Shown here: positions 3,948 through 63,485 of the stretch, piece by piece | Layout of the letters: every line of letters begins with the position of its first letter | Position numbering within the stretch: position 1 is the stretch's first letter | Origin: an uncultured virus (IMG/VR IMGVR_UViG_3300010158_000055) | Lineage: Duplodnaviria > Heunggongvirae > Uroviricota > Caudoviricetes | IMG/VR virus record: IMGVR_UViG_3300010158_000055 | Length of the DNA: 64,000 bases | Direction: 5' to 3' (one strand) | The notes under the pieces: model-generated | Databases searched by the model: none | What the model was told of the DNA's origin: nothing | Seen by the model: the letters and a program-made list of their open reading frames with translations, nothing else | Translations under genes and position numbers: made by a program

Positions 3948-4664
3948 TTAGCCAGGCGCTGACACCATGGCATGAATATTTGATATTAATGCAGGGTTTA
4001 TTAGGCCAATAAACGTAACAATCGCTGGATCGTTGGTGTAAAAGAACACACCCCAAGTGCTTTCATACTGTTTATTCAGCATGTCTTTAGATGTTTTGCT
4101 TAGTTTAACTGTGTCGCCTAGATTTTCTAAATAGTGTAATAATTGTTGTTTAGTTTGAAGTGAATATCTACCATCGCGTACAATTACTTTGTGTGAGTAT
4201 GCCCATGGTGTTGGTGTTACAATGGCACCGCACTGTAACAATGGCACCATTTCCGGCTGTGGGTATGTGATAGATTCTATATATTTTGGATCAATCTTCA
4301 ATGCTATGGTTTTTAATGTGGCTTCATCTTGGGTATAAAATTGTATGTTGGGTTCTTCTATACGTGTTCTAACTGAGCCAGACATGCCTGTTTTGATCTC
4401 TTGAACTGTACGCAACAGCGTTAAATCTACTAGATCCAAGTTGGGAGATCTATAAAACCAACCAGTTTTACCAAAATTATATCCAGATTGAGCCATAGCA
4501 CGTCTATGTTCCAACGCCGCTTCAAGACTTGCAAGTTTTGAATCCAACAGTCTACCGCCTTCGGCATGTATTACCAAACGCCAAAGATATCTACCGTGAA
4601 ATTGCTTCACAGTGGTAGCGAGTTTGATACCCGGTTGTATTTTATTCCAGAACGATGAGTCCAT
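3948..4664 (-). CDS. Hypothetical protein
   Basis: 238-aa ORF overlapping the clpA end. Confidence 0.65.
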   Translation of the reverse strand: MDSSFWNKIQPGIKLATTVKQFHGRYLWRLVIHAEGGRLLDSKLASLEAALEHRRAMAQSGYNFGKTGWFYRSPNLDLVDLTLLRTVQEIKTGMSGSVRTRIEEPNIQFYTQDEATLKTIALKIDPKYIESITYPQPEMVPLLQCGAIVTPTPWAYSHKVIVRDGRYSLQTKQQLLHYLENLGDTVKLSKTSKDMLNKQYESTWGVFFYTNDPAIVTFIGLINPALISNIHAMVSAPG

Positions 4665-6924
4665 CGGCGTCCACTGTGGCTTGGGTTGGTACTGAGATTG
4701 ATTCGAATGTCAATGCTTCATCCACACAGTCAACAACCACTGTGGTAGATTCAGGAATCTTTTCAAATAGTATTTTTTTACTCAAGGGTACTTTGATTAA
4801 ATCGTTAATTTTACGTGCCATGGGTCTAGCACCCATTTGACTGTCATGTCCTACTCTGGCTAGATAATCTATTGCTGATTCGGTCAGTCTAACACGAATA
4901 GATTTTTCGCTGAGTAATTCATTGAGTTCATTGATGAACTTGGCTACAATCTTTTTCATACTCAGTGCATCTAGCCGATTAAACTTGCAAACTCCATCCA
5001 GTCTGTTGCGAAACTCAGGTTTAAAGAACTCCCGAACTGCTCGGTCATCTTCATCACTTCGGTTGATGTCGCCAAATCCTATGCTTTTACGTTCATTGTC
5101 GGCAGCACCTAGATTGCTGGTTAAAATAACAATACAGTTACGTGCATCGGCTTTTTTACCATTACTGCTGGTGACAACACCTTCGTCCATCAAGCTCAGC
5201 AACACATTGACAACATCCGGATGTGCCTTTTCAATTTCATCAAACAACAACACACTGTTGGAGTTTTTCTCAATATCGGATATTAATAATCCTCCGCCTA
5301 GATTGCCATCATCGTAGCCAACATAGCCGGGAGGAGCACCAATCAGTTTACTTGCGGCATGCTTTTCTTGATACTCGCTCATGTCGTAACGCAACAGTTT
5401 CATTCCAAGATTTTCACTCAGTAGTTTTGCCAACTCAGTTTTACCTGTGCCGGTGGGCCCTAAAAACAAAAAGTTGCCAATGGGCTTGTTGATTGATTTC
5501 AATCCAGCACGGCTGACATAGATCTTTTCCAATACAGTGTCCACTACCGATTCTTGTCCGTATAGGCGATTTTTAATATTGCTTTCTAAACTGTCAAGAT
5601 TTTTAATTGACTCGGTGCCGATTTGATCCACTGGGATTTTGGTAAATCTACTGATGACATCTACAATGTCACCGCGTTGTACACACCAATCAGTTTCACG
5701 TATTTTTAATCTAGCACAGGCTGAATCAATCAAATCAATGGCCTTGTCCGGCAATCGTTTATCTGTTTGATAACGTACACTCAAGTCCACAGCAGCATCA
5801 ATAGCTGAGTCGTCAATGACGCCGCCATGAAATGTTTCGAAGTGTGTGCGTAGGCCACGCAGTATATCTTTGGCCACAGCAGGTGTTGGTTCTTCCACTG
5901 TTAATCTATGGAAGCGACGCATGAGAGCACGATCTTTTTCAAAACTTTGACTGTATTCTTCCCATGTGGTTGACGCAATAACTTTGATTTGACCTTTGGC
6001 CAAGGCTGGCTTGATCATGTTAGAAAAGTCTACATTGCTTTGGCTTCCGGCTCCGGCACCACGCATTTGATGTGCTTCATCAATAAACAATATGCATTTG
6101 CCTTGAGCAATCAAAGCGGCAACGACATCTTTGAGCTTTTCCTCAAAGTCTCCGCGATACTTGCTGCCGGCCAATAGACTTCCAATGTCCAGGTTATAAA
6201 CTGTATGGTCCCGCAAATAGTCAGGAACTGCTCCATCCACTATGTTTTTTGCCAAGCCTTCGGCAATGGCAGTTTTACCAACACCGGGATCACCAATTAG
6301 TAATATGTTTGATTTATTGCGTTTGGCCAACACCTGTGCTATTTCATCAATCTCGTAATCTCTACCAATCACAGGATCAATTTTGCCCGCACGTGCCTGT
6401 GCATTCAAGTCGGTACAGTACTGTTCTAATGTTTCAGTAGATTTGATATTGACAGCACGGGCCTTACCACGCTTGGTGGAATAATTGTCATTGTAATAAT
6501 CCAATACATCTTGACGATTGTCAAGTCCATATTTTAATAAAAAATAATGTGCGTAACTGTTGTGTTCGGCAAACACACTGATGTATAAATCAATCACCTG
6601 CATGGTGGATCTGCCACTGAACAGCACTTGAGTAAATGCACGATTAAACACACGTTCCAGTGCATTGGTTTTCTTGGGTTCTGTGAACTCCACAGCACTG
6701 ACTAAGAATACCTGGTCGGATAGATAATTATCTAAATCGTTTTGTAATCCCTCAACATCTACGCCGTAACTATCTAAAAATTCACCAAACGGCTCATATG
6801 CGACTAGACTTTTTAGCAAGTGTTCCAAAGTCACATATTCGTGATTCAGTGCCCTGGCAGTGTCGCTGGCATTTTTAATAATTACTTCTATTTCAGGATT
6901 GGGTTGTATCATCCGGTCTTCCAA
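4642..6924 (-). CDS. clpA: ClpA-like ATP-dependent Clp protease ATP-binding subunit
   Basis: Clp N-domain (HEYVTLEHLL), two AAA+ domains (GDPGVGKT, GPTGTGKT), LPDKAID, FDEIEKAHPDV, GARP. Confidence 0.92.
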   Translation of the reverse strand: MEDRMIQPNPEIEVIIKNASDTARALNHEYVTLEHLLKSLVAYEPFGEFLDSYGVDVEGLQNDLDNYLSDQVFLVSAVEFTEPKKTNALERVFNRAFTQVLFSGRSTMQVIDLYISVFAEHNSYAHYFLLKYGLDNRQDVLDYYNDNYSTKRGKARAVNIKSTETLEQYCTDLNAQARAGKIDPVIGRDYEIDEIAQVLAKRNKSNILLIGDPGVGKTAIAEGLAKNIVDGAVPDYLRDHTVYNLDIGSLLAGSKYRGDFEEKLKDVVAALIAQGKCILFIDEAHQMRGAGAGSQSNVDFSNMIKPALAKGQIKVIASTTWEEYSQSFEKDRALMRRFHRLTVEEPTPAVAKDILRGLRTHFETFHGGVIDDSAIDAAVDLSVRYQTDKRLPDKAIDLIDSACARLKIRETDWCVQRGDIVDVISRFTKIPVDQIGTESIKNLDSLESNIKNRLYGQESVVDTVLEKIYVSRAGLKSINKPIGNFLFLGPTGTGKTELAKLLSENLGMKLLRYDMSEYQEKHAASKLIGAPPGYVGYDDGNLGGGLLISDIEKNSNSVLLFDEIEKAHPDVVNVLLSLMDEGVVTSSNGKKADARNCIVILTSNLGAADNERKSIGFGDINRSDEDDRAVREFFKPEFRNRLDGVCKFNRLDALSMKKIVAKFINELNELLSEKSIRVRLTESAIDYLARVGHDSQMGARPMARKINDLIKVPLSKKILFEKIPESTTVVVDCVDEALTFESISVPTQATVDADGLIVLE

Positions 6925-6945: not shown

Positions 6946-7794
6946 TTATTGAGAGATCTTAATTTGTTTAATTAAGTCTAGTTGAGCAGTTGAAAGATTT
7001 CTTGGAACTGTAATCATTATTTTAACAAGTAAATTGCCTCTTTGCGAGCTGTTTAATTGCCAGACTCCGTTGTTGGGTATTCTGAATAAATTATCGTGCT
7101 GTGCACCTGGGGGTACGGTAAGTAAAAATTTACTGCCATCGATACCGACAACTTCGGTTTCTGTACCAGTGACAGCGTCTAAACAATCAACTTCCACAGC
7201 AGTGACCACATCTAGGTCATGCAGTTCAAACCCTGGTGGAACAGCCACAGCAAATACCACATATAAATCGCCCCTGGGTAATGAATTGAAAAAATTATCT
7301 CCCAGTCCAGAATACTTGATTTGTGTACCATGAGTCACACCTCTGGGTATGGTGACTTCCACTGTTTCTCTGTGTCCGTTTGTGGTTTGAACGCTGATTG
7401 TTCGAGTTTGATCCGCCAAGGTGCTGGCCAAATCCACAGTGATTTCTATACGTAGATCTTTGTTGCGTCTTGGCTGTTGGTGTGCATGCCAGGGAGCACC
7501 ACCCCCAAAGTTAAATCCAAACTGTTGAAAAATACTTTCCATCCCTGGTGGAACACCTGAAAATGGTTGTCCATTGAAATTGAATCTGATGCCACCGGGA
7601 TTGGCTTGTTCGTGATCATACTGGGCTCTGCGATCTGCATCACTGATGACATCATAGGCTGCTTGTAATGTTTGGAATGTGGCGGTGTCTCCTCCACGGT
7701 CAGGATGATGCTGACTGGCTAATTTTCTATAAGCTCGTTTGATTTCTTCTGGGGTAGCTGATTCGTCAACCCCCAGTGTAGCGTAGTGTGTCAT
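6946..7794 (-). CDS. DnaJ/CbpA-type J-domain chaperone
   Basis: J domain with HPD, G/F-rich linker, DnaJ C-terminal domain, no zinc finger. Confidence 0.9.
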   Translation of the reverse strand: MTHYATLGVDESATPEEIKRAYRKLASQHHPDRGGDTATFQTLQAAYDVISDADRRAQYDHEQANPGGIRFNFNGQPFSGVPPGMESIFQQFGFNFGGGAPWHAHQQPRRNKDLRIEITVDLASTLADQTRTISVQTTNGHRETVEVTIPRGVTHGTQIKYSGLGDNFFNSLPRGDLYVVFAVAVPPGFELHDLDVVTAVEVDCLDAVTGTETEVVGIDGSKFLLTVPPGAQHDNLFRIPNNGVWQLNSSQRGNLLVKIMITVPRNLSTAQLDLIKQIKISQ

Positions 7795-12780: not shown

Positions 12781-13734
12781 TCATTCAGGTTTGATCTTTC
12801 TAGCAACAGGTTGCCACACAGAGCGTAAACGTAACATGCTGGCTCTAACACCGGCGGGTGAGTGTTCGGCGGGTGTGATAAACATCAAGTTTTCTGCAAA
12901 TTTCGCTCCGGCTTCAGTACTTCTAATTGCTGGTACAAACTGGTCTCGATACCAGGCCTGCACATCAGCAGGTGTGCCCCGGGGTAACACAATATTCCAG
13001 CATCCATGTATCGATAATCCTGGAGCAACTGTTTGCATCAATGGTGCTGATTCTAATCCTTTTAGTGGCTGTTCATTGGCAATACCAATTAATTTTAATT
13101 TACCTGCTTGTGCATGTGGCCATCCAACTGCCACAGGTGTAACTCCGAATTCAACATGTCCTGCTACGACGTCTAACAGGGCTTGAGCCGGTCCTTTGTA
13201 CATGGGAGTCACTACTGAATCGGTGGGCATTTGCAGACTATCAACAAGATATTGTACTGCCAGTCTGTGTCCACCACCACCAATGGCAATATTAACTGGT
13301 CTCTTTTGACTCTGTATCAATTTGACCAAGTCTTGAGGGGTGTTGACAGGGCTACCGGGTGCAGCCCAAAATGCCAAGGGACTGCGGGCAATGTTGGCCA
13401 CTGGTTCAAATTCCTGTGCATCATAACGAACCATATTGCTGTACCATACGTCCGCAGTGACCCAGTTGCTTTGACAAGCAGGCACAGCAACAGTGTATCC
13501 ATCTGCAGGCACTGTGGCAAAGTGATTCATGGCAATGTTGCCATCGGCACCGGGTCTATATTCACTAACAAATGTGGCACTGGTTCGCTTTTCCACTATA
13601 CTGGCCACAAATCTAAAACTGATTTCATTGCCGGCACCGGGGCCATTGGGAAATATCACAGTGATGGGTCGTTGTGGTTCCCAGGCAAAAGCCAGCACGG
13701 GTATCAATAATAATACTGCTAATAATTTTTTCAT
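12781..13734 (-). CDS. Tripartite tricarboxylate transporter substrate-binding protein (Bug/TctC)
   Basis: Signal peptide; RPGADGNIA, ADGYT, YKGPAQALLDVVAG motifs. Confidence 0.85.
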   Translation of the reverse strand: MKKLLAVLLLIPVLAFAWEPQRPITVIFPNGPGAGNEISFRFVASIVEKRTSATFVSEYRPGADGNIAMNHFATVPADGYTVAVPACQSNWVTADVWYSNMVRYDAQEFEPVANIARSPLAFWAAPGSPVNTPQDLVKLIQSQKRPVNIAIGGGGHRLAVQYLVDSLQMPTDSVVTPMYKGPAQALLDVVAGHVEFGVTPVAVGWPHAQAGKLKLIGIANEQPLKGLESAPLMQTVAPGLSIHGCWNIVLPRGTPADVQAWYRDQFVPAIRSTEAGAKFAENLMFITPAEHSPAGVRASMLRLRSVWQPVARKIKPE

Positions 13735-26440: not shown

Positions 26441-29400
26441 TATGCGTAGTTGCTCTGCTGTCCCAATATACGGTAGGAGCCGTTGTTTAGATTGATTAAA
26501 CTGATGCTGATGACATCGGTGTTGCTGGCAGTGCCAGTGGGCACTGTGGCCCCGGCCCATCGTATGTTGCTGACTGTGCCGCCGGCAAACTGTATGTTGG
26601 CAATACGGTAGGGAGTAGCACCTTGGTCAACTATCACAGTAAAGCCGGCAGTGGTAAAGGCCGTATTGCTGATGTTAACAATATTTGCTGTGACATTGGC
26701 AGTGAGTGTGGCATAGTACACTCCACCGTTGATGAAGTTAAGTGTTAGGTTACCACCTGTGTTGCTTACGTTGCTGTAAGTTTCGTAGTAAGAACCTTGT
26801 TGGAATGTGTTGCCCACCAATGTAGTAGTACCGGTATGGTATGTGTTTGCATTTACATTTAAATTACCACCAACTGCCAAGTTACCAGCAACACCGGCAC
26901 CACCTGCCACATACAATGCACCTGCAGTTCCTATAGTAGTTCCAGTTCCCACGGTTGTGTTACTCAACACCAAGCTACCCAGCTGAGCATTGCCAAATGT
27001 ACCTGTGACATTGCTATTTGTTTCTGTGGCACTTATCAAATATTGCAGTGTTCTTGTAGAGTTTTCCAATCCCAAGAATGCCAAACTGTCTACACCATTG
27101 TAGTAGTGCATACGTAGGCCCACGTCCTTACCATCATCCACTGCCCAAGCGGCCAAGTTACCATAGGTGTGTAAATCTAATATGCTATCGTAAATTGTAA
27201 CCTGTCCTGCATCAACAGCAAGGTTGCCAGTTAAAGAAGTAACACCGTTGACAGTGACATTACCTGTGTATGTTGCTGTGGTGCCAATTGCGTTACCGTA
27301 GTGTGCGCCGATTAAGTTACCGGCTGTGATGTTGGCTGTGGTTGATATAGTTGCTGTTGTCAAATAGGCACTGACATTGGTATTGCTATACGTTCCACTG
27401 CCAGCAGCAATGGTGGTTAAAATATTAACACCATTGGCAAACAAGTAATTTGGAGCAATAACATTGCCGCCAATGGTGATGTTGCCAGCCACACCAGCTC
27501 CGCCTTTGACAACCAATGCACCAGAGTTAACGTTGGCACTAGTTGTAGTAGCTGGAATTACAATATTTCCTTCACTACCAATTCTTAAAGATTCAACAGC
27601 AACATTTGAACTATTTCTTATAGTAGTAACTGTGGCGTAAACTCCGGTTGAACTGTTGGTAAAATTCTCATCTGCGTATACATTTAATCCAGCACCGGAG
27701 TTGGCATTATATCCCGATAATCCATATCCTTTGACAACAAAAAATCCCAATCTATCTCCCAACTGAACAGCCGATGGGACAGCGGTGGTTCCTCTGGCAT
27801 GTCTAAGACTGATACCAGATGCTGTGGCTGTACCAAAACTATCTATACCTAGAACAGCATTTACAGCAGTGGCACCATTTATATGTAGAATAGCATTATT
27901 GTTAGATATAGGAGCATCAGTGGTTGCGTTGAGAGTAAGTATACTGTCAGCTGAAGCCAATGCATTGCCTAAACCCAATAATAAGTTGCCACGAATAGTG
28001 TGTAATGAATAATTATATGATCCAACATTGATATTGCCCAGCACACCCATGCCACCATTCACCACCAATGCGCCGGTGGTGTTGTTGACCGGAGCAGTTC
28101 CTGGATTGTAAATGCTTACTGCAACGTTGGCAGTATTGGCCCCACCAGCGATAAATTTGATATTGGTTCCCGGGGTAGCAGTACCAATGACTAAATTACC
28201 TCCAGGCGATCCACCGGTGATGTTGCCCTGTGCATAAAGATAAGCATCATTGATGTTGAGCACTGTGCCCAAGCTGTTGTTGGGATTCAATCCGTTGTAA
28301 TTGCTACCAGCAATGCCTAAATCAACAAAGTATGTGGTATCTGAGCCATTGTTGGCAGTGGCTATGTAATCAGTAGTGCTTTGATTTCCCAAACTGATAT
28401 TTTGTATGTTTAGTTGAGAATAACTGTTGGAGTTGGTGGTAAATTGAGCTAGGTAGTAGGGAACTACAGAGTATCCAGACTGTAATCCAGCTGTGATGGG
28501 CTTAAAACCGGTCACCGGATCGCCCGACGGTGTGATGTGATTGGCTGAAATATTACCTGTGTACACAGGCAAATAACTTGCCACTGTTGCGTTACTGTAT
28601 CCGCTTACACTGTAAGTTGCATTGGCGTAGGTATAAAAACTTCCAACATTGGCATCTAGGGTTTGAATACGTGTGTTGGCCGCAGTGACTTGTGAAGTTA
28701 AGGTGCCGGTTGCACTTTGCCAGTTTTGTGTATCAGCAGCGTTTACTTGATCCACATAATTTTTTAATGCTGTGTTGGCAGTGACTATTGCGGCATTGGC
28801 ACCTTGTATCTGACTCAGTTGGGAAACAGCATTGGCATCAACATAGCTCTTCATTGCTGTGTTGGCTGTTACAATAGCGGCGTTAGCACCACTGATGCTC
28901 AAGTTGGCAGCAACAATGTTTGAACTCATTGCAACATTCAGTGTGTTGACATAACTAACCACAGCCGAGTTAGCAGACACAATAGCGGCGTTGGCACCAG
29001 CAATGGCGTCACTTTGAACCCCGGCATTGGCAAACAAGGTGGCAAGGTTACCGGCTTGAACAGCGGCATTGGCTGTCCATGCAGAAACAATGGCACTATC
29101 TCGTGCATCAACGTAAACTGTCATTGAAGAATTAGAACTATACACCTGCGAGTCAGTATAGGCTCTCAGTGTGACGTTGGCAGTGGAGATCTGTGTGTCT
29201 GTGTAGGATTTAAGTGCGGCATTGGCTGACACAATAGCACTATTGGCACCAGAGACATTGCTGGCCATAGCAGAATTTAGTGTGTTGACATAGGCAACTA
29301 CAGAGGAATTGGCAGTGACTATGGCACTGTTGGCAGCGGTAATTTGTGCCAACTGTGCAACTGCGTTGGCTGTCCACGCGGCAGTAACTGATGAAATTTG

Positions 29401-31543: not shown

Positions 31544-32089
31544 TTATAGTCTATGGTTCACCACAGTCCAGTCGATGATTCGCCAGATGTTGTTGAGATA
31601 TTTGCTTTTGTTTGATCCGTAATCAGGTTGGTAAGCATGCTCCCACATGTCCACCAATACTGCTATGTCAGTTCTTTTTGCGTGGTTGCGTATGGTTCTA
31701 ATCTTGCCGTTTTTACTAAGATAGCACCAGCCTGAACCCTGTATCTTCATAGCTTCGGTTTTGAATTCCTGTTTGAACGATATATAGTTATCAAAGTGAC
31801 GATCAATCAAATCCAACACACGACCAAAAGGTCGATTGCTGCCGGGAGATTTAAATTGGCTGAACCAAATATCATGTAGAAAAGCTCCGGCTTCGTTGAA
31901 ACTTCTATCACCTTCATGATTGTTGAATCTTTCCACATATCCGTGATACAGTTTACCGTAATGAATGTCGATGTTTCGCTTGGTCAACACTGGAGCAAGA
32001 TCTCCAACACCGTAGGGTAATTTTACTTGTTTGAGCACTACCGGAGCAGTGGCTTCTAATAGGTCAATAGTTTCGCGAATTGTGTTCAT
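31544..32089 (-). CDS. Fe/Mn superoxide dismutase
   Basis: LPY, ligands in IHYG, LHDIWF, DMWEHAY; GSGW; start MNTIRE after ATAAATA. Confidence 0.88.
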   Translation of the reverse strand: MNTIRETIDLLEATAPVVLKQVKLPYGVGDLAPVLTKRNIDIHYGKLYHGYVERFNNHEGDRSFNEAGAFLHDIWFSQFKSPGSNRPFGRVLDLIDRHFDNYISFKQEFKTEAMKIQGSGWCYLSKNGKIRTIRNHAKRTDIAVLVDMWEHAYQPDYGSNKSKYLNNIWRIIDWTVVNHRL

Positions 32090-32109
32090 ATAGTATTTAT
32101 TGCCATTGG

Positions 32110-32439
32110 TTAAGTATCCGGCCAATCTCTATACAGTGCATGTTGTATATTACCTTTAACAAACTGGTTGAAACTACGATGTTTATCTTCAAGTTCACCT
32201 TCCAACGGTGCTACTCTCTTGAAAGCATTTTCCAATTGAGCCATATCTGTAAACTCCATCATAATATGCCATTCTGGTAAATCTTGTATACTACGAAATC
32301 CCATTTTACAACGTGTAATCCTATAACTAACCATTTTATTTTCTATAATTAAATGATTAAGAAATCCCTTCATATTATTGACCCAAACAGTGTCGGTAAT
32401 ATCGCCTTCTTTGTCTGCCCAAATATGATATATATCCAT
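32110..32439 (-). CDS. Small alpha/beta protein (DUF6614-like)
   Basis: YHIWAD...ITRCKMGF...EWHIMMEF; start MDIY coupled to upstream stop. Confidence 0.55.
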   Translation of the reverse strand: MDIYHIWADKEGDITDTVWVNNMKGFLNHLIIENKMVSYRITRCKMGFRSIQDLPEWHIMMEFTDMAQLENAFKRVAPLEGELEDKHRSFNQFVKGNIQHALYRDWPDT

Positions 32440-45829: not shown

Positions 45830-45858
45830 ATTATAGCATGACTTGAATTCTGGGTCAA
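45830..45858 (-). promoter_or_regulatory. Sigma70 early promoter
   Basis: TTGACC-17-TATAAT. Confidence 0.8.
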
Positions 45859-46069
45859 CTGTTATTGACCACTGCCTGCACCAGATTTTTAATGCGTAGT
45901 TCACGATACCGGCCAATGCGTTCTTCCAACTCCATGGCATGACCACGATAGTGTGTCACCAGGTCTTCGGCTAAATCGTCCAGCTCTGACTCGGTTAAAT
46001 CGGCTATGGTTTCTGCTAGGCCAATAATTTTTATATCATTGCACATTGTCGTCCTTGCTGTATTTTATG

Positions 46070-46372
46070 TTAATTACCAAGTACTGCCCAGATTGCAGTC
46101 TGCTCTAAGTCTGTTTCAAACTCGGGATATATTCTATCCAATTCTGTTGTGGGTATCTCAGCGTATCCTTTCTTTTGCTTGGCTCTGATCGAATTGTTTA
46201 TTTGATATGCTTCACCACTGAATGGTTTGGTTTGCAATTTCTTACCACGCCTGCCCCAAACAGTCGCATAGTTTCCAGCATCTGCCCCGTGCTTGGGTGT
46301 TCGCAAACAAATAACTGCCCAAATTTTGTCATGGTTATCTTCGCGACACCATCCAATCCATTTGTAATTCAT
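46070..46372 (-). CDS. WGR-like domain protein
   Basis: DKIW, WGRRG, K.KKGY motifs. Confidence 0.65.
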   Translation of the reverse strand: MNYKWIGWCREDNHDKIWAVICLRTPKHGADAGNYATVWGRRGKKLQTKPFSGEAYQINNSIRAKQKKGYAEIPTTELDRIYPEFETDLEQTAIWAVLGN

Positions 46373-46905
46373 TCAGACTCCTGATAAGGTTTGTGTGGTT
46401 CAAGTCCCAATTCCTCAACTCCATCTTTGTACCATACTGTGACATCATCTTCCAATTCGGCAATACCTGCACTGATGCCAAATTCCGTATCTAAATCCAC
46501 AGGAATGGTGTTGGCCACTTCCGCGGCAGTCAAGTCGCCGATGTTGTAGCAGTCGTCTCCGGTTTCATCAAAGATACCACAAAATGCCATGTTGGGTTCG
46601 TAATACCGGGCCGTGACTCGAAAGCCCAGGTCCTGCAATCGTTCGTATGCGGCAATGGGTGGCGACCAGGCTGAATCAAACGCCAAGTCTAACTCAGTGG
46701 GCTTGCAGTTCATAATAAAATTACCGCCACCCACGTCCCATTTGGTTCCCCAATTGTTTACACACCAATCATAATCCCACTCACCGTTGGGTAAAGGGAT
46801 AAATTCTGCCAACAACTCACTGCGAGTGTAGGCCTTCTTTGCACGGTCAATCATGTCAGGATCACTATGTTGTAATTGTAAACTATTTTCACACCAATTT
46901 GGCAT
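46369..46905 (-). CDS. YubB/DUF1281-like ferredoxin-fold protein
   Basis: MPNWC.N, W...NWGTKWD, F.SAWSPP motifs. Confidence 0.75.
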   Translation of the reverse strand: MPNWCENSLQLQHSDPDMIDRAKKAYTRSELLAEFIPLPNGEWDYDWCVNNWGTKWDVGGGNFIMNCKPTELDLAFDSAWSPPIAAYERLQDLGFRVTARYYEPNMAFCGIFDETGDDCYNIGDLTAAEVANTIPVDLDTEFGISAGIAELEDDVTVWYKDGVEELGLEPHKPYQESE

Positions 46906-46906
46906 G

Positions 46907-47191
46907 TTATTCTCCTACTTGTAATTGTTTAATTAATGTATCTTTTTCAATCAATTGAAACTTGAGATCCTGATTCACCTGTGTCAAGACTGAATTTTTC
47001 TCTTGTAACAACTGTAGTTCTTCCTGCAACTCCAGATCCGGTTCAACAAACTGTATGGCCATGTCACAGGCACTGCTGAAACATGTGGGACAAAAACTCA
47101 CTGGCAACATGCCAAAGTGTCCTTGTACTCCACCTTCATCGTCGGAATATTCGGTACTGCATATATTACATATCTGTTCCGGCACTATCAA
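46907..47191 (-). CDS. Small Zn-finger / coiled-coil protein
   Basis: CNIC...CPTC. Confidence 0.55.
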   Translation of the reverse strand: MIVPEQICNICSTEYSDDEGGVQGHFGMLPVSFCPTCFSSACDMAIQFVEPDLELQEELQLLQEKNSVLTQVNQDLKFQLIEKDTLIKQLQVGE

Positions 47192-47534
47192 TCTCCTTTG
47201 TATGACGGCATTGACCTCTAAATGTGTAGCCGGGACATGTACATGCTAACACACCGTCCACACGCTGTACAATATATTGACCGCCATTTGATCCTGCCAC
47301 TGTCCACTGCTGGGTGGATTTGATCTCATTCAAATCAATTTCGCCCAGCTCCGGAACTTCCTCAAATGTACGACCACGACTACTGAATTGGTATGGTTTC
47401 TTTATCACCACTGGCTCACTGGTGCCTGCTGGCAAGTAGCCATACATCTTGTCCCGAGACGTGTTCAACAGGTATATGTGATTGGGCACTGTGTAGTCTG
47501 TGTCCCAGGCAGTGGTTTCTCTATAAAATTTCAC
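47166..47534 (-). CDS. SWIM zinc-finger protein
   Basis: CTCPG...CRH; AAGGA RBS, GTG start. Confidence 0.65.
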   Translation of the reverse strand: MKFYRETTAWDTDYTVPNHIYLLNTSRDKMYGYLPAGTSEPVVIKKPYQFSSRGRTFEEVPELGEIDLNEIKSTQQWTVAGSNGGQYIVQRVDGVLACTCPGYTFRGQCRHTKEIDSAGTDM

Positions 47535-47548
47535 ATCTATCCTTGTTA

Positions 47549-47660
47549 AAAAATAAGTGCTGGTTTTTATTTCAAGTCTAAAACCAGCAAAAGCGACATG
47601 CGGGTTTCTGGAGTATCAAGGCTCTCCAAGGAAGGCATCTCCCCATTACAGCCTGGTTTA
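47549..47660 (-). ncRNA. Unrecognised structured RNA motif, copy A
   Basis: Shares GGGAGATGCCTTCC, AAACYYGCATGTCG and AGACTYGAA with 52688-52806; ends in a hairpin plus U-rich tract. Confidence 0.7.
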
Positions 47661-47975
47661 ATCAGCTCGGGAACAAGCATAAGCACGTAAGCCGGCCTGC
47701 TGTAATACTCGAGCAAATGCATCGGCACCAGCTTCTTTGACGTCCATGCTCTGTCCATGATATGCACCTGCTGTCCACAGGCTTAGACATTTGGGTTTGT
47801 AACTTTTCTTAAAACCCGCGGCAATCAATTCTCGGGCTTGCTTGGAGTTGACTCGATCCACATAAACTTCAACCCAACCAAAACCACAGTATGCAGGCTC
47901 ACCATGTTTAGCAAGAAAATCGTTTTCGGCTTGTACTGCGGCTTGTTGTGCATTTTGAACAATTTCTTTTATCAT
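47658..47975 (-). CDS. Hypothetical protein
   Basis: CGFGWV, QSMD.KE motifs; behind promoter cassette. Confidence 0.7.
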   Translation of the reverse strand: MIKEIVQNAQQAAVQAENDFLAKHGEPAYCGFGWVEVYVDRVNSKQARELIAAGFKKSYKPKCLSLWTAGAYHGQSMDVKEAGADAFARVLQQAGLRAYACSRAD

Positions 47976-47977
47976 TT

Positions 47978-48040
47978 ACAGCTCCTTTTGTTTAACTATA
48001 CTACTATTATACAATATTTGGAATTTTGGGTCAACCAAAA
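47978..48040 (-). promoter_or_regulatory. Early promoter + RBS cassette
   Basis: TTTTGGTTGACC-17-TATAAT...TATAGTTAA...AGGAGCTG. Confidence 0.85.
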
Positions 48041-48313
48041 TTACGCTAGAGTCACTTGTACTTGGAATCCACGCACTGTCATGCCCAGGCCTGTGGGCAC
48101 ATCGGCACCCAAGTGCTGAGCGAAACTGCGTTTGCGAGCCAACTGCTCCATGACATCCCAAACAGCAACTCTGGCATTTGTTGTGGCAAAATCTTCTGCC
48201 ATTTGCCGAACAGTCAAGTAAAACCCAATGTCATATTCACTGCCACCTTGACCAAAAATCACACGGAATCTTTGGCTGTTTTTAAAACCTTCTATGATTG
48301 TTTTTTTACGCAT
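48041..48313 (-). CDS. Hypothetical early protein
   Basis: Between two promoter cassettes. Confidence 0.65.
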   Translation of the reverse strand: MRKKTIIEGFKNSQRFRVIFGQGGSEYDIGFYLTVRQMAEDFATTNARVAVWDVMEQLARKRSFAQHLGADVPTGLGMTVRGFQVQVTLA

Positions 48314-48315
48314 GT

Positions 48316-48378
48316 TCAGCTCCTTAAAATTTAACTATACTAATATTATAACAAATGACCCATTATGGGTCAACCAAA
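48316..48378 (-). promoter_or_regulatory. Early promoter + RBS cassette
   Basis: TTTGGTTGACC-17-TATAAT...TATAGTTAA...AGGAGCTG. Confidence 0.85.
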
Positions 48379-48609
48379 TTAAAAGTGTGGATCCAAGTGG
48401 TTATGCACTCCCGGAATTAAGTAAACATATCTGCAACCAGTTTCAGTGTAGATTGTTCTACCATCGTACGACTGTTTTTTAGTGTACTTTTTACCAGTAT
48501 CAGTGAAAATAAAACGCGGAGTAATACGTGTGATTTTACCATCATAGTATCTATCACCGTTGATACCGTAACTTACATCATCGCCTACATTGTATTTTGC
48601 TTCTACCAT
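48379..48609 (-). CDS. Hypothetical early protein
   Basis: Start MVEAK with AGGAG RBS; promoter TTGCAC-17-TATAAT at 48640-48668. Confidence 0.65.
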   Translation of the reverse strand: MVEAKYNVGDDVSYGINGDRYYDGKITRITPRFIFTDTGKKYTKKQSYDGRTIYTETGCRYVYLIPGVHNHLDPHF

Positions 48610-48737: not shown

Positions 48738-49703
48738 TTATTCTATGTTTTTGCTCACGTTTTTAAGCAATTTTAAGGTCTGGGATTGGGTGTTTGCCAA
48801 CTGCTCAAACGTACCGCCCGGGTTTATAATACCAATTGCTTTTAATCTTTCAGCATACACTGGATTTTTAAGTTCTTGATTTATTAAATTGTTGATACGT
48901 GCTCTGGCCGAAAGAGGTGTATCTGCAGGTGCATACACGCCATACCAAATGTTTAAGCCCAGTTCTGGATGTAAATTGGACAACACTGGTACAGTTACGG
49001 CAGGATTCAATTCATGCACCAGTCTAGAACCTTCAGGTGTCAGCGCCGCAATGATTTTAATTTTACCCGACATCCAAGCCGGACGCATGGTGCTCAACAC
49101 ATCAAAGGCAAAGTCTACATTGCCGCCTATTAGGTCTGTCAGTTGTGGTGCACCACCTTTGTAATTGATAATCTGTGGCATAGGTAATTTTTCCAACTTG
49201 GCCCACAGTGTAAAGAGATTTGCAGTGTTTTTATTCCAGTAGGCCACATTGAACCGTTGAGGATTTTTACGCACATAATCTTTTAGTTCTGCATAGGTGT
49301 TGACAGCACTGTTGGCTGGAACAGCCAACACCATGGTACTGATGCCCAAGGGTACTACAGGATCAAAACTAGATTCTGTATATTCAATGCCGTCTGATCG
49401 AGTCTTGAATGCTATGTTGCTGTCCAAGAATCCAGTGCCGCCCATGAACAAGGTATGTCCATCAGGCTTGGCCCGTGCCACAAAGTTTGCGGCTATGACA
49501 GTGTCTGCCCCGGGTCGATTTACAACCACAGCTCGCCATCCGTTGTTGGCAAACATTTCCTCGACGATACGAGCAACACGATCACTGTTACCACCCGGCG
49601 GGTATGCCACCACAATCTCAATGGGTCGCTTGGTTGGGTCAAACTCAGCCACAGCTGACAGTGATGTCAATAATGCTATGGCGATGATAATTCTTTTAAA
49701 CAT
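48738..49703 (-). CDS. Second Bug/TctC substrate-binding protein
   Basis: Signal peptide; YPPGG..D, NRPGA, PDGHTL, YKGGAP...DL.GG motifs. Confidence 0.88.
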   Translation of the reverse strand: MFKRIIIAIALLTSLSAVAEFDPTKRPIEIVVAYPPGGNSDRVARIVEEMFANNGWRAVVVNRPGADTVIAANFVARAKPDGHTLFMGGTGFLDSNIAFKTRSDGIEYTESSFDPVVPLGISTMVLAVPANSAVNTYAELKDYVRKNPQRFNVAYWNKNTANLFTLWAKLEKLPMPQIINYKGGAPQLTDLIGGNVDFAFDVLSTMRPAWMSGKIKIIAALTPEGSRLVHELNPAVTVPVLSNLHPELGLNIWYGVYAPADTPLSARARINNLINQELKNPVYAERLKAIGIINPGGTFEQLANTQSQTLKLLKNVSKNIE

Positions 49704-52358: not shown

Positions 52359-52505
52359 TTAATTATAACCACGTATGACATTGTTGTCAATGGGTGGATT
52401 TGATCTTGCCAATTCTCGTTTAACAGCTTCTTGATGTTGCTGTTCTTTTTTCTGCTTGTTCTGTTCAAACTTCTGAAGTATCACAACTTCTTCTTTGTGT
52501 GGCAT
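52359..52505 (-). CDS. Small charged ORF (48 aa, MPHKEEVV...)
   Basis: Hand-translated; CTAAATA upstream; overlaps the tmRNA promoter. Confidence 0.4.
   Translation of the reverse strand: MPHKEEVVILQKFEQNKQKKEQQHQEAVKRELARSNPPIDNNVIRGYN
52362..52390 (-). promoter_or_regulatory. Consensus sigma70 promoter for tmRNA
   Basis: TTGACA-17-TATAAT. Confidence 0.9.
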
Positions 52506-52521
52506 AGTATAACTATTTAGT

Positions 52522-52678
52522 ATAGATAAATGCAGGAGTGTCGTATTTCGGAGTCTTCCGCTAAGAAGTCCTTAACCATTGACACGGTTATGTCAGGACT
52601 GTGTGATGGTCCACTCAGCCCGCCTAGTCAACACGTCTGTCAACGATACCCGTAGTTTCCTCTCCTACACTTACCTAT
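52522..52678 (-). ncRNA. Unrecognised ~155-nt structured RNA
   Basis: 17-bp closing stem whose three non-WC pairs are all G:U on the minus strand; several internal hairpins. Confidence 0.6.
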
Positions 52679-52687
52679 TCTAGATAG

Positions 52688-52806
52688 GATCCCGGGGGGT
52701 TCGAGTCTCACCGGGGTCGACATGCAAGTTTTGTAGACGTTGTTTCAAGCGAGCGAATTTCTTCGCCTCTACCGGAAGGCATCTCCCTTTCGCTGATACC
52801 GGCTTA
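52688..52806 (-). ncRNA. Unrecognised structured RNA motif, copy B
   Basis: Same core boxes as copy A; variable arm expanded with a GCGAA-GAAA-TTCGC tetraloop hairpin. Confidence 0.7.
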
Positions 52807-53139
52807 TTCGCCCATTACTTCCTGTGCAATAGCACGAGCCTTAATGGCTTCTAAACTTGGCTTGGCAATTTTGGTCTTGGTTGACTTGACCACTGCTGAA
52901 CCGTTGTACTTTTCATCAGCGGCATCAATCGCGGCACGATAATCTGCATTGGCATACAACTCAGTACCTTTTAAGAAAGTTACCAACTCGCCTTTGGTCA
53001 TTGCTGAAGGCAAATCCATAAGATTGATATCGCTATCAGTTTTTGCCAAGATTTTAACACGAGTCATGTCATTCGCAAAACGAACTTTGTACTGACCTTG
53101 AGTCTTGCTAACACCACCTACTTTGAACTGTTTGTCCAT
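52804..53139 (-). CDS. Conserved hypothetical protein
   Basis: KVRFAND..RVK.L motif; AGGAG RBS; promoter TTGACC-17-TACAAT at 53199-53227. Confidence 0.7.
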   Translation of the reverse strand: MDKQFKVGGVSKTQGQYKVRFANDMTRVKILAKTDSDINLMDLPSAMTKGELVTFLKGTELYANADYRAAIDAADEKYNGSAVVKSTKTKIAKPSLEAIKARAIAQEVMGE

Positions 53140-53517
53140 TTTTTACTACTCCTATTTAAAAGTTGAAAATACAATACCAACACACTTGGTATATTCTAAT
53201 TGTAGTTGATTTTGAATTATTGGTCAACTCGAATTGGAATTTGGTTTGTCCGAAATTATCTTAACCAAATATACAACGGACGGTCATCTTGTGATTCTAC
53301 TGTAACTATTTCTACTTCTGGTTCCAGTTCCGGCAAATCTTCTTCATCCGCTTCACGCTGGTATTCGGGATCTTCGTAATTGTATGCAAATGTCATTTCG
53401 ATGCCTCCTTGGCCACTGCCTGTACTTTGTTGACACCGTTGTCAAACATTCTAGCAATGCCAGAAAACCCCACTGTGCAGACCACAATGCCCACCACTAC
53501 ACCTAGTATAAATTTAC

Positions 53518-54950: not shown

Positions 54951-55148
54951 ATTATAACTGCTCCTTGATGTTGGAAATCATGGCACGAATACGTTGATAG
55001 TCAGATTCTTCTCTACGTTTGCTGACCAATGCTTGGTTGGCTAAATCTTCACGCAAGGCCTCTAAAACCAATTCCGCTTGACGCGGGGTTAAATCTAATA
55101 CAACTCTTTTTGCTATCATTTCAATTCCTTTTTATTAACAATACAACT

Positions 55149-55183
55149 AGTATAAACTATAGTGAATTCTGGGTCAACCAAAA
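55149..55183 (-). promoter_or_regulatory. Early promoter cassette
   Basis: TTTTGGTTGACC-17-TATACT. Confidence 0.8.
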
Positions 55184-55195
55184 ATTGTTGCGTAT

Positions 55196-61894: not shown

Positions 61895-63420
61895 TTATTG
61901 TGGTGCTCGTTCTAACCTACGAGCAAGATGTCTTTGCCAACTGGCATCTAGATCCGGCCTACGCAACATACCGCCTATCGCTCGTTCAGCCGACCCTGTA
62001 CTTTCCATGGTGTCCGGCAGTTCATAAAAATTGTATCGCACACTCCATCTGGGTGCATTGGTTCTAACAGCATCAATTTCATGTAGTACAGGCAGTCGTT
62101 GCCATTGAGTCGTCAACTGCTCTAGCACTGTGTCCCAAAATGTTTGACTCCAAACAGTCTTGGCTCGGCTTCTAGCGGATCTGGCCAAATCTAGTCTATG
62201 TCCCAGAGTGTCTAATTCTTGTTCTAAATATCTGTAGTCTTTGAGATCATGATGCACAATTGTGATAGGAGTCATATTACAATTCTAGTAGGTTAGTTAA
62301 CGGGATTATCATTTATAAATTGGGCCTGGGCAAGGAAATGGTTAATTTCGTGTTGCACCAGCCATACATGCTTTTTCAGTGCTTCTTCCACTGTGGCCCA
62401 CCGTCCTAGGATTTCTCCTTCGCCGGATTCTGTCCTAAACACACCGGTTTCGTAGGGCAATCCTGTGTGGAAACTGCCAAGATGTACTGTACTGATCTTG
62501 AGTTCACCTATGACTGTAACTGCTACTGGTTTGGGTAAGGAGTATTCTGACATATTATTTCCTTATCGTTTCAAAAAGAGAATGGCTAATACAACACCCA
62601 ATATTATTTGTAACATTAATTCGTTTGACATATTAACCCCACGCTTTCTTGGCACCGTGTTTTTCATTCCAGTAATAACCAGAAGTATATGCATAGATTT
62701 CTTCTGCTGTCATATCGGCTGCTTCTATCCTATCGCTAACACCAGTACCTGCGGTGTAATAATGAGGGTCAATGCCACGTCCGTAGTAACTGTCTGCTGA
62801 ACCACGGTCCCAAGGTCCACCGTGTCTTGTATCAAATTCTTTAACATCATATCTATACATATTTGCTCCCGAAGTTTAACTATACTACTATTATAACCAA
62901 AATGTCATTTTGAGTCAACCATTTTCCATTGCCAGGTTCATTTTGTGCCCTTGTTCTTTTCTGGCCTATGATCAGCACCTTTGGCCTGACATTGTTTAAT
63001 AAATTTGGCATCAAGTTTAACACCTGTTCCTGCCAAGTTAAATTTGTTCAACGCATAGCCCAACTGAGTTGAGTTGGATAAAACCGAACTCACCAGTGAT
63101 TCAATTTTGCTTTCTGCAATACCCGACTCTAGCAATTCTGGTAAATTCTCTAGGATAAACTGCTTGATGATTGGGTTCATGCTGTGTCCTTAGGCTGTTT
63201 GTTTGGCGTCCATAATTTCGCAAAGTATGAACTTGGCAATGTTGATCTGTTTGCGTACAGCATCTTTACTGGCACCACCCGCCAACATTTCTTGTGCATC
63301 GCTTAAAACCGACATCACTACCATATCTAAACCGCTGAGTCTAGCAGTGATACCGTTCATGTATTCTTCACGGATTTGTGATGCATCAATACCATAACAG
63401 TTCTTTTCAAATTCAGTCAT
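61895..63420 (-). other. Small hypothetical early genes (61895-62275, 62293-62553, 62633-62860, 62938-63180, 63190-63420)
   Basis: Tiled ORFs; promoters at 62890-62918 and 63450-63478. Confidence 0.6.
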
Positions 63421-63485
63421 TTCAGCTCCTAATTAATTACTATACTAATATTATAGCAAATGGGGAATTATGGGTCAACCAAAAT
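63421..63485 (-). promoter_or_regulatory. Early promoter + RBS cassette
   Basis: TTTTGGTTGACC-17-TATAAT...AGGAGCTG. Confidence 0.85.

Follow-up and report, generated by a model that had tools for sequence, protein, structure and literature searches.

A stretch of 64,000 nt from an uncultured virus of the Caudoviricetes, hereafter the window, carries on its minus strand two copies, A and B, of a structured RNA element that matches no Rfam family and whose helices, judged by compensatory changes among related sequences, are clearly under selection. The element is tentatively read as a small non-coding RNA in its own right, or a 3'-end module, to which a partner binds at the invariant unpaired bases; the chances of this reading are put a little under even.

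Two copies of an RNA element in the window

The two copies (Table 1) had been picked out, in an earlier sequence-only reading of the window, as a structured RNA motif of no recognised class, and every string quoted in that reading was found on the minus strand where it had been placed. The first base of copy A falls 3 nt past the TAA of a 105-aa ORF, and copy B (52803..52685) directly adjoins the TAA of a 111-aa ORF. Common to both, in this order, are a hairpin (H1), a variable hairpin (H2), the box AAACYYGCATGTC (box2) and a terminal hairpin (H3). H1, GGGAG-AUGC-CUUCC, is the same in A and B at all 14 positions, and the H3 loop contains AGACUYGAA in both window copies. With up to two mismatches allowed, GGGAGATGCCTTCC occurs exactly twice in the 64 kb, against 0.19 occurrences expected, and none of 100 shuffles gave two; AAACYYGCATGTCG (the box AAACYYGCAUGUCG) has exact matches in the window at copies A and B only. 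A covariance model of A-type sequences alone placed copy B second among the matches of the whole window (20 bits, E about 1e-3), and neither this model nor that of types A, A' and B gave any other convincing match there, the next one lying inside a 1191-aa ORF (27405..27515). The folds of the single sequences are not unusually stable (z of -1.70 for A and +0.13 for B). Gene duplication as the source of the similarity between the copies was rejected, the two upstream ORFs giving no BLASTP alignment.

Comparison with Rfam by Infernal, which the sequence-only reading had proposed, gave no match in Rfam 15 at either copy: at gathering thresholds tmRNA alone was matched in the whole window, and at E up to 10, in stretches of 16 kb, 161 nt and 331 nt, nothing was matched on the minus strand at copy A or B. 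The best match nearby, to mascRNA on the plus strand, reached 22.4 bits, under the gathering score of 42.5. A tRNA-like or T-loop reading of H3 on that strand was rejected, ARAGORN finding tmRNA only and type A' (see below) breaking the TTC of the would-be T-loop. Keyword searches of the literature gave nothing on the motif; keywords cannot find a sequence, and an earlier description is possible.

Four 6-bp palindromes (GTCGAC, CCCGGG, GGATCC and TCTAGA) lie within 45 nt in or after copy B, two of them inside and one partly inside the H3 stem or box2, and TCTAGA in a small hairpin past the copy. An independent DNA run has this region with only two changes in copy B (16 over its 496-nt contig), so the palindromes are no cloning artefact. 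Copy A is flanked by a 10-nt inverted repeat, complementary at 9 of 10 positions, through which the last part of the upstream ORF would pair with the ribosome-binding site of the downstream gene; the repeat is not seen in L004 and may be due to chance.

Table 1. Copies A and B, their parts and neighbouring features, in positions of the 64,000-nt window
Feature	Position	Strand	Basis or remark
Copy A, whole element (model positions 1-100)	47555..47654	-	covariance model, 133.2 bits (A-only model R1), 120.3 bits (A+A'+B model R2)
P1 of copy A: AGGCU (47654..47650) / AGCCU (47623..47619); encloses H1, crosses H2	47619..47654	-	MFE fold and RNAalifold consensus
H1 of copy A: GGGAG-AUGC-CUUCC, invariant G.U pair	47630..47643	-	sequence count, covariation
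H2 of copy A: UGGAG / CUCCA, loop AGCCUUGAUA	47609..47628	-	covariation
box2 of copy A: AAACCCGCAUGUCG, unpaired	47594..47607	-	GCAUGUC invariant in 8/8 sequences
H3 of copy A: 10-bp stem UGCUGGUUUU / AAAACCAGCA, 12-nt loop AGACUUGAAAUA	47558..47589	-	-11.9 kcal/mol
Tail CUUAUUUUUU after H3 of copy A, with the look of an intrinsic terminator	47548..47557	-	sequence
Copy B, whole element	~52685..52798	-	covariance model, 20.2 bits (A-only model), 79.5 bits (R2)
H1 of copy B, same as in copy A	52774..52787	-	sequence
H2 of copy B: GUAGA / UCUAC, inserted hairpin GGCGAA-GAAA-UUCGCU	52733..52772	-	fold
P1 equivalent in copy B, alternative: UUCGCU (52757..52752) with AGCGAA (52794..52789)		-	6-bp inverted repeat
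box2 of copy B: AAACUUGCAUGUCG	52718..52731	-	exact match
H3 of copy B: GACCCCGGUG / CCCCGGGAUC (8/10 pairs), loop AGACUCGAACC, no U tract	52688..52718	-	covariance model
105-aa ORF (phrog_22149), stop codon abuts copy A	47658..47975	-
Sigma70-like promoter cassette TTGACC-17-TATAAT, drives the 105-aa ORF	48006..48034	-	promoter scan, repeat family D1/D2
111-aa ORF, stop codon abuts copy B	52804..53139	-	29 related loci
Promoter-like site TTGACC-17-TACAAT, upstream of the 111-aa ORF	53199..53227	-	promoter scan
Further promoter cassettes (examples)	47976..48041, 48315..48380, 55119..55184, 63420..63485	-
Inverted repeat flanking copy A	47538..47547 and 47672..47681
Palindromes in or after copy B	52679..52721
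Non-coding block between copy B and tmRNA	52523..52677	-
tmRNA, permuted beta-type, tag ANASNDEVYALAA	52025..52404	-	157.8 bits
tmRNA promoter, perfect TTGACA-17-TATAAT	52390..52362
Host-like genes	48738..49703 and 12781..13734	-
Host-like genes, others	4642..6924, 6946..7794, 31544..32125

Relatives, compensatory changes and the putative pseudoknot

Relatives were sought by pattern scans of IMG/VR, of metagenome contigs and of 185,579 species genomes (GTDB), filtered by covariance models. Members were found in seven IMG/VR contigs and a few lake metagenome contigs only, giving eight distinct sequences of five types in all: type A (the window, L001 with two tandem copies, L002, L004), type A' (L047, L057-59), type C (L150, L151), type D (L152) and type B (the window, L056). 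One 341-kb metagenome contig carries both window copies, 5,124 nt apart, and the CheckV completeness of 1-35% for contigs of 5-112 kb points to giant phages. The 185,579 species genomes held no copy, their three chance pattern matches each scoring at most 4.8 bits; a host-derived repeat was rejected, that scan having given chance matches only. In IMG/VR a scan for box2 plus CTTT returned 31 loci, made up of seven known contigs and 24 others of at most 17.3 bits. The locus L133 (15.3 bits) apparently lies inside an ORF, by frame reading, and was dropped as chance. Searches of the contigs with known copies, of related loci amounting to 589 kb and of records 127 kb and 261 kb long gave no extra copies. 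No close relative among cultured phages emerged from sequence comparison: a 6.4-kb query aligned by blastn to a phage collection over 47-72 nt only (query 1040-1111), in two Xanthomonas phages, and the best ligase identity is 37%.

The structured motif of the sequence-only reading was borne out by this set, in which the further homologues and the covariation that a covariance model and a search of phage metagenomes had been meant to reveal were both found, with compensatory changes in three helices. In the alignment of the eight sequences, which come from few related lineages and were fitted by a covariance model that favours its own structure, 95.7% of the cells are paired, against 38.8-55.6% with the 3' partners slid by 1-3 columns. 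Both sides are changed in 17 of the 29 pairs, and none of 500 shuffles reaches the observed values. Such changes affect all five pairs of H2 across the family, eight of the ten of H3, two of the five of H1 (types C and D) and two of the five of P1, where they come from the type D lineage alone and are joined by a G.U in L002. RNAalifold independently yields P1, H1 and H3.

Types A' and C, which follow homologous ORFs, differ at 9 of 101 positions, one of them in the H1 loop and the other eight accounting for four compensatory pairs. The unpaired segments show no change between the two, and the coding flank is only 70-83% identical. The G.U pair of H1, kept in all eight sequences, would be an A-C mismatch on the opposite strand, which indicates an RNA read on the gene strand. 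About 45 unpaired bases are invariant in the eight sequences while the stems change, the family consensus being AAACYYGCAUGUC for box2 and GACUYNAA for the H3 loop.

The sequence-only reading had further proposed a pseudoknot between the ATGC loop of H1 and GCAT, and this pairing found no support in the covariation. None of its four pairs is changed on both sides, GCAU never varies, and the H1 loop of the eight sequences is AUGC, AAGC, GUGC or AGGC; since the loop varies without compensation, one of the four pairs, the second, is broken in two of the eight, and one goes from A-U to G.U. A scan admitting any H1 loop with any partner returned 43 loci and no new member, only four known contigs scoring. 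Better support, from the alignment, is available for P1, whose crossing of H2 suggests that the element probably forms an H-type pseudoknot. In copy A there are 0 nt between the 5' arm of H2 and the 3' strand of P1 and 5 nt after that strand, loop lengths that would fit a classical H-type pseudoknot, and in copy B a 6-bp pairing stands at the topological place of P1.

H3 followed by a U tract ends types A, A', C and D, and not B. Its loop of 8-12 nt is conserved in sequence. A terminator scan flagged types C and D (12 and 11 pairs, a loop of 8 and a T run) and did not flag copy A of the window, in which the 12-nt loop is too long, the U tract CUUAUUUUUU is interrupted and the 10-bp stem has four G-C pairs. 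Copy B keeps H1, box2 and the loop and pairing of H3 without a U tract, and the conserved core is thus not simply a terminator. The usual terminators of these phages are short G+C-rich hairpins with T runs.

A terminator/antiterminator switch had also been envisaged in the sequence-only reading, by way of the 5' flank (AAACCAG in A, GCCGG in B). The AAACCAG/CTGGTTT pairing is present in the window, but among nine contexts such a pairing is confined to the two window copies, and the other seven flanks, as read, are without it. In the alignment of types A, A', C and D an alternative pairing can be read between the 3'-terminal CCAG of H2 and the CUGG of H3; it comprises 4-6 bp, as against 10-12 bp for H3, and is absent in B. 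A leader-peptide attenuator was rejected: the reading frames that start at the box2 ATG are 10, 7 and 27 codons long, encode unrelated peptides and have no ribosome-binding site, and no conserved short ORF overlapping the terminator was found.

Genomic context, transcription and spread

In eight of the nine contexts a promoter cassette is followed by one ORF of 35-113 aa and then by the element, which begins 0-9 nt after the stop codon in the ORF contexts. In type D (L152) a promoter, TTGACA-17-TAGAAT (11/12), overlaps the stop of the preceding ORF, with 7 nt left between its end and the element; the latter ends in an 11-bp H3 and U6, flagged as terminator-like, and is followed by a ribosome-binding site and a 115-aa ORF. 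This order of promoter, element, terminator and gene would fit a cis-acting leader equally well. The promoter cassettes of the window number about ten and consist of GGTTGACC-17-TATAAT, then a conserved leader and ribosome-binding site (about 66 nt, family D1/D2). Some of the cassettes of about 66 nt bear a palindrome over the -35 hexamer and resemble the PeSL (promoter-early stem-loop) cassettes of T4-like phages. On the minus strand no promoter-like match was found inside 47549..47654 or 52685..52803.

Five ORFs (47534..45855) lie downstream of copy A, with no promoter match of at least 10/12 until 45858, and downstream of copy B a conserved structured non-coding block precedes a phage tmRNA. 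Nearly every context has unrelated genes downstream, among them those of a SWIM-type protein, a membrane protein and small unknown proteins, and a non-coding RNA with a tmRNA; this difference argues against a metabolite riboswitch. Two RNA-library contigs, X3 (47630-47858) and X4 (52756-53130), run from ORF into element with no differences from the window, their strand and freedom from DNA not being given; they do not cover H3 of A or B and stop at non-equivalent places. They are compatible with co-transcription of the ORFs and the element, and speak weakly for the reading favoured below. Sites complementary to box2 are no commoner in the window than chance predicts (35 with up to three mismatches, against 38.6 expected).

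The non-coding block between copy B and the tmRNA is common to L013, L014 and L015. RNAalifold gives it 41 pairs, 15 of them with compensatory changes, in which three hairpins are enclosed by a stem of 15 bp. With no Rfam match and no promoter of its own, it is probably another unnamed structured RNA. Right after the stop of the 111-aa homologue in L017, L019/L020, L022/L023, L024/L025 and L026/L027 stands a different small, conserved hairpin, GGGC..CGCC-GAGA-GGCG-UAUNAGU-CCC, with a covarying inner stem and a GNRA loop, and the slot after the 111-aa gene seems to collect structured elements. In L037-L041, too, the 111-aa gene precedes tmRNA. Structure near a stop codon has reportedly been described, in work on REP sequences, as stalling ribosomes and calling in tmRNA. 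Host-like genes of the phage encode two TctC-family binding proteins, a ClpB-like ATPase, DnaJ and an Fe/Mn superoxide dismutase. Freshwater Burkholderiales are a tentative guess at the host, made only from the beta-type tmRNA and the TctC genes.

Comparison of related phages places the element at insertion/deletion boundaries. In L007, whose ORF is 83% identical to the 105-aa ORF, the stop codon is followed by 9 nt and the start of the orthologous downstream gene, without the element; L006 has a different cassette at the site of copy A; and L013-15, the closest relatives of the 111-aa ORF, have a plain hairpin in place of copy B. The A-type copies of L042-L044 are identical to the window at 99-100 of 100 positions, and their upstream DNA at 59-67%. 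These comparisons show that phages both acquire and lose the element. It has no terminal inverted repeats, the inverted repeats found being the internal stems. A TTAA/TA target duplication was rejected, TTAA flanking four A-type copies and not A', C, D or B. The contigs L001, L047 and L057 break off within the element, which is how assemblies behave where a repeat is dispersed. Recombination between phages, as for other phage regulatory cassettes, would be a likely route for its spread.

Proposed function and comparison with known systems

The favoured reading of the element as a small non-coding RNA or 3'-end module is drawn from the selection on the fold and on some 45 unpaired bases, from the core kept in B without a terminator, and from the variant that has its own promoter. 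It envisages a module, some 100 nt of RNA, that belongs to freshwater jumbo phages of an uncultured lineage and which host-type (sigma70-like) early promoters would make as the 3' end of a single-gene early mRNA and which, in one variant, would be transcribed directly from its own promoter. The core of P1, H1 and H2 would be followed by single-stranded box2 and by the long H3 with its conserved loop, and with the U tract that follows H3 in all types but B transcription should stop, so that either a small RNA is set free or the mRNA keeps a stable, structured 3' end. A protein or a target RNA may recognise a surface made up of box2 and the H1, H2 and H3 loops, and the module would then act as a small regulatory or 3'UTR-derived RNA, beyond a mere terminator. 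Counting against this reading are the unremarkable stability of the single-sequence folds, the chance number of box2 complements in the window, the small set of related sequences, the type D arrangement that suits a cis-acting leader equally well, and copy A going unflagged in the terminator scan.

Several other readings were weighed against the same observations. A conditional terminator, riboswitch-like or a factor-dependent attenuator, in which the pseudoknotted core responds to a ligand or to some factor of phage or host, sets the stop at H3 and gates the promoter-less downstream genes, is unlikely, although the order of promoter, H3 with U6, ribosome-binding site and ORF in L152, the five ORFs after copy A with no promoter match until 45858, the combination of invariant unpaired bases with covarying stems that is typical of aptamers, and the possible CCAG:CUGG alternative in A, A', C and D would all suit it. 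The antiterminator pairing first proposed is restricted to two of nine contexts, however, CCAG:CUGG is short beside H3 and absent in B, B is without a U tract, the downstream genes are unrelated, and a conserved H3 loop would be unusual for an expression platform. A more ambitious reading, to which a real but minor chance is given, sees a novel pseudoknotted RNA class of giant phages in which the core, catalytic or binding a ligand or factor, would control the halt of early transcription at H3, and so gate promoter-less genes, as a mobile, self-contained cassette. That the element is a plain 3'-end cassette, a terminator or mRNA stabiliser shuffled by recombination like PeSL and with no further RNA function, is rather improbable: in its favour, the element is always found where genes end, among many repeated promoter cassettes (D1/D2, 10 copies), close relatives lack it at the corresponding sites, almost identical copies occur in contexts that are unrelated, L001 has it twice in tandem, and three contigs end inside it as at repeats, but the terminators usual there are of a different, short G+C-rich kind, and the invariance of about 45 unpaired bases and the core of B without its U tract speak against such a cassette.

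The compact fold, probably a pseudoknot and invariant at its junction bases, the scattered occurrence among phages in several copies and the place of B between an mRNA and the downstream structured non-coding RNA and tmRNA would be in keeping with a self-cleaving ribozyme or a nuclease processing signal that parts upstream mRNA from downstream RNA. That reading is nonetheless quite improbable, with no ribozyme family matched at E up to 10 in 161-331 nt, no cleavage-site signature that could be named, and RNA-library contigs that lend it no support, as they stop at non-equivalent places in A and B. Selfish repeated DNA, MITE-like or a recombination site and without RNA function, is hardly credible: the presence/absence polymorphism and the sharp identity boundaries would agree with it, whereas the element has no terminal inverted repeats and no consistent target duplication (TTAA missing in A', C and D), no copy occurs in the 185,579 species genomes, and the compensatory changes and invariant G.U fit RNA pairing on the transcribed strand.

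The regulatory RNAs of uncultured giant phages are almost unknown, and in the present element the fold is clearly selected, unpaired bases are invariant and the position within early transcription units is defined; synthetic RNA would allow tests with no phage in culture. If ligand or factor binding, or action in trans, proved true, the element would represent a new class of RNA and a regulatory part that can be moved; if it were a terminator only, it would still show the shuffling of a 3'-end module among phage genomes.

Among known systems, intrinsic (Rho-independent) terminators are similar in the H3 and U tract of types A, A', C and D, but the element has in addition a conserved loop of 8-12 nt and a structured upstream domain, and B is without the U tract. 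In bacteria, 3'UTR-derived and stand-alone small RNAs can be the same RNA made from an mRNA end or from its own promoter; the element is like them in its conserved single-stranded box and its terminal hairpin with U tail, and differs in a core far more structured than a typical seed region. Terminator riboswitches likewise have a conserved core, putatively pseudoknotted here, followed by a terminator, and the L152 copy lies between promoter and gene as theirs do; unlike them, the element has no Rfam class, no conserved alternative pairing and no shared downstream gene, and most of its copies come after an ORF. The lambda nut and HK022 put sites are RNA sites of hairpin and linear box, two per genome, in early transcripts upstream of terminators. 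The two copies, conserved hairpin and linear box of the element, in early transcripts, recall these sites, but there is no sequence or Rfam similarity and the terminator hairpin belongs to the element's own conserved unit.

As described in two reports, the PeSL of T4-like phages are small conserved cassettes between short non-essential genes of hyperplastic regions, composites of a strong sigma70-like promoter and a simple stem-loop of terminator type, which mark the insertions, deletions and swaps that distinguish related phages (PMC2839356, PMC4122927). The element resembles the PeSL so described in also standing near short genes at indel boundaries between related phages. It differs in having no promoter match, three to four helices and about 45 invariant unpaired bases, and the window has separate PeSL-like promoter cassettes of its own. 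On that description, the lack of a promoter and the far more elaborate RNA indicate that the element is not a member of the PeSL, which are nevertheless the closest described concept.
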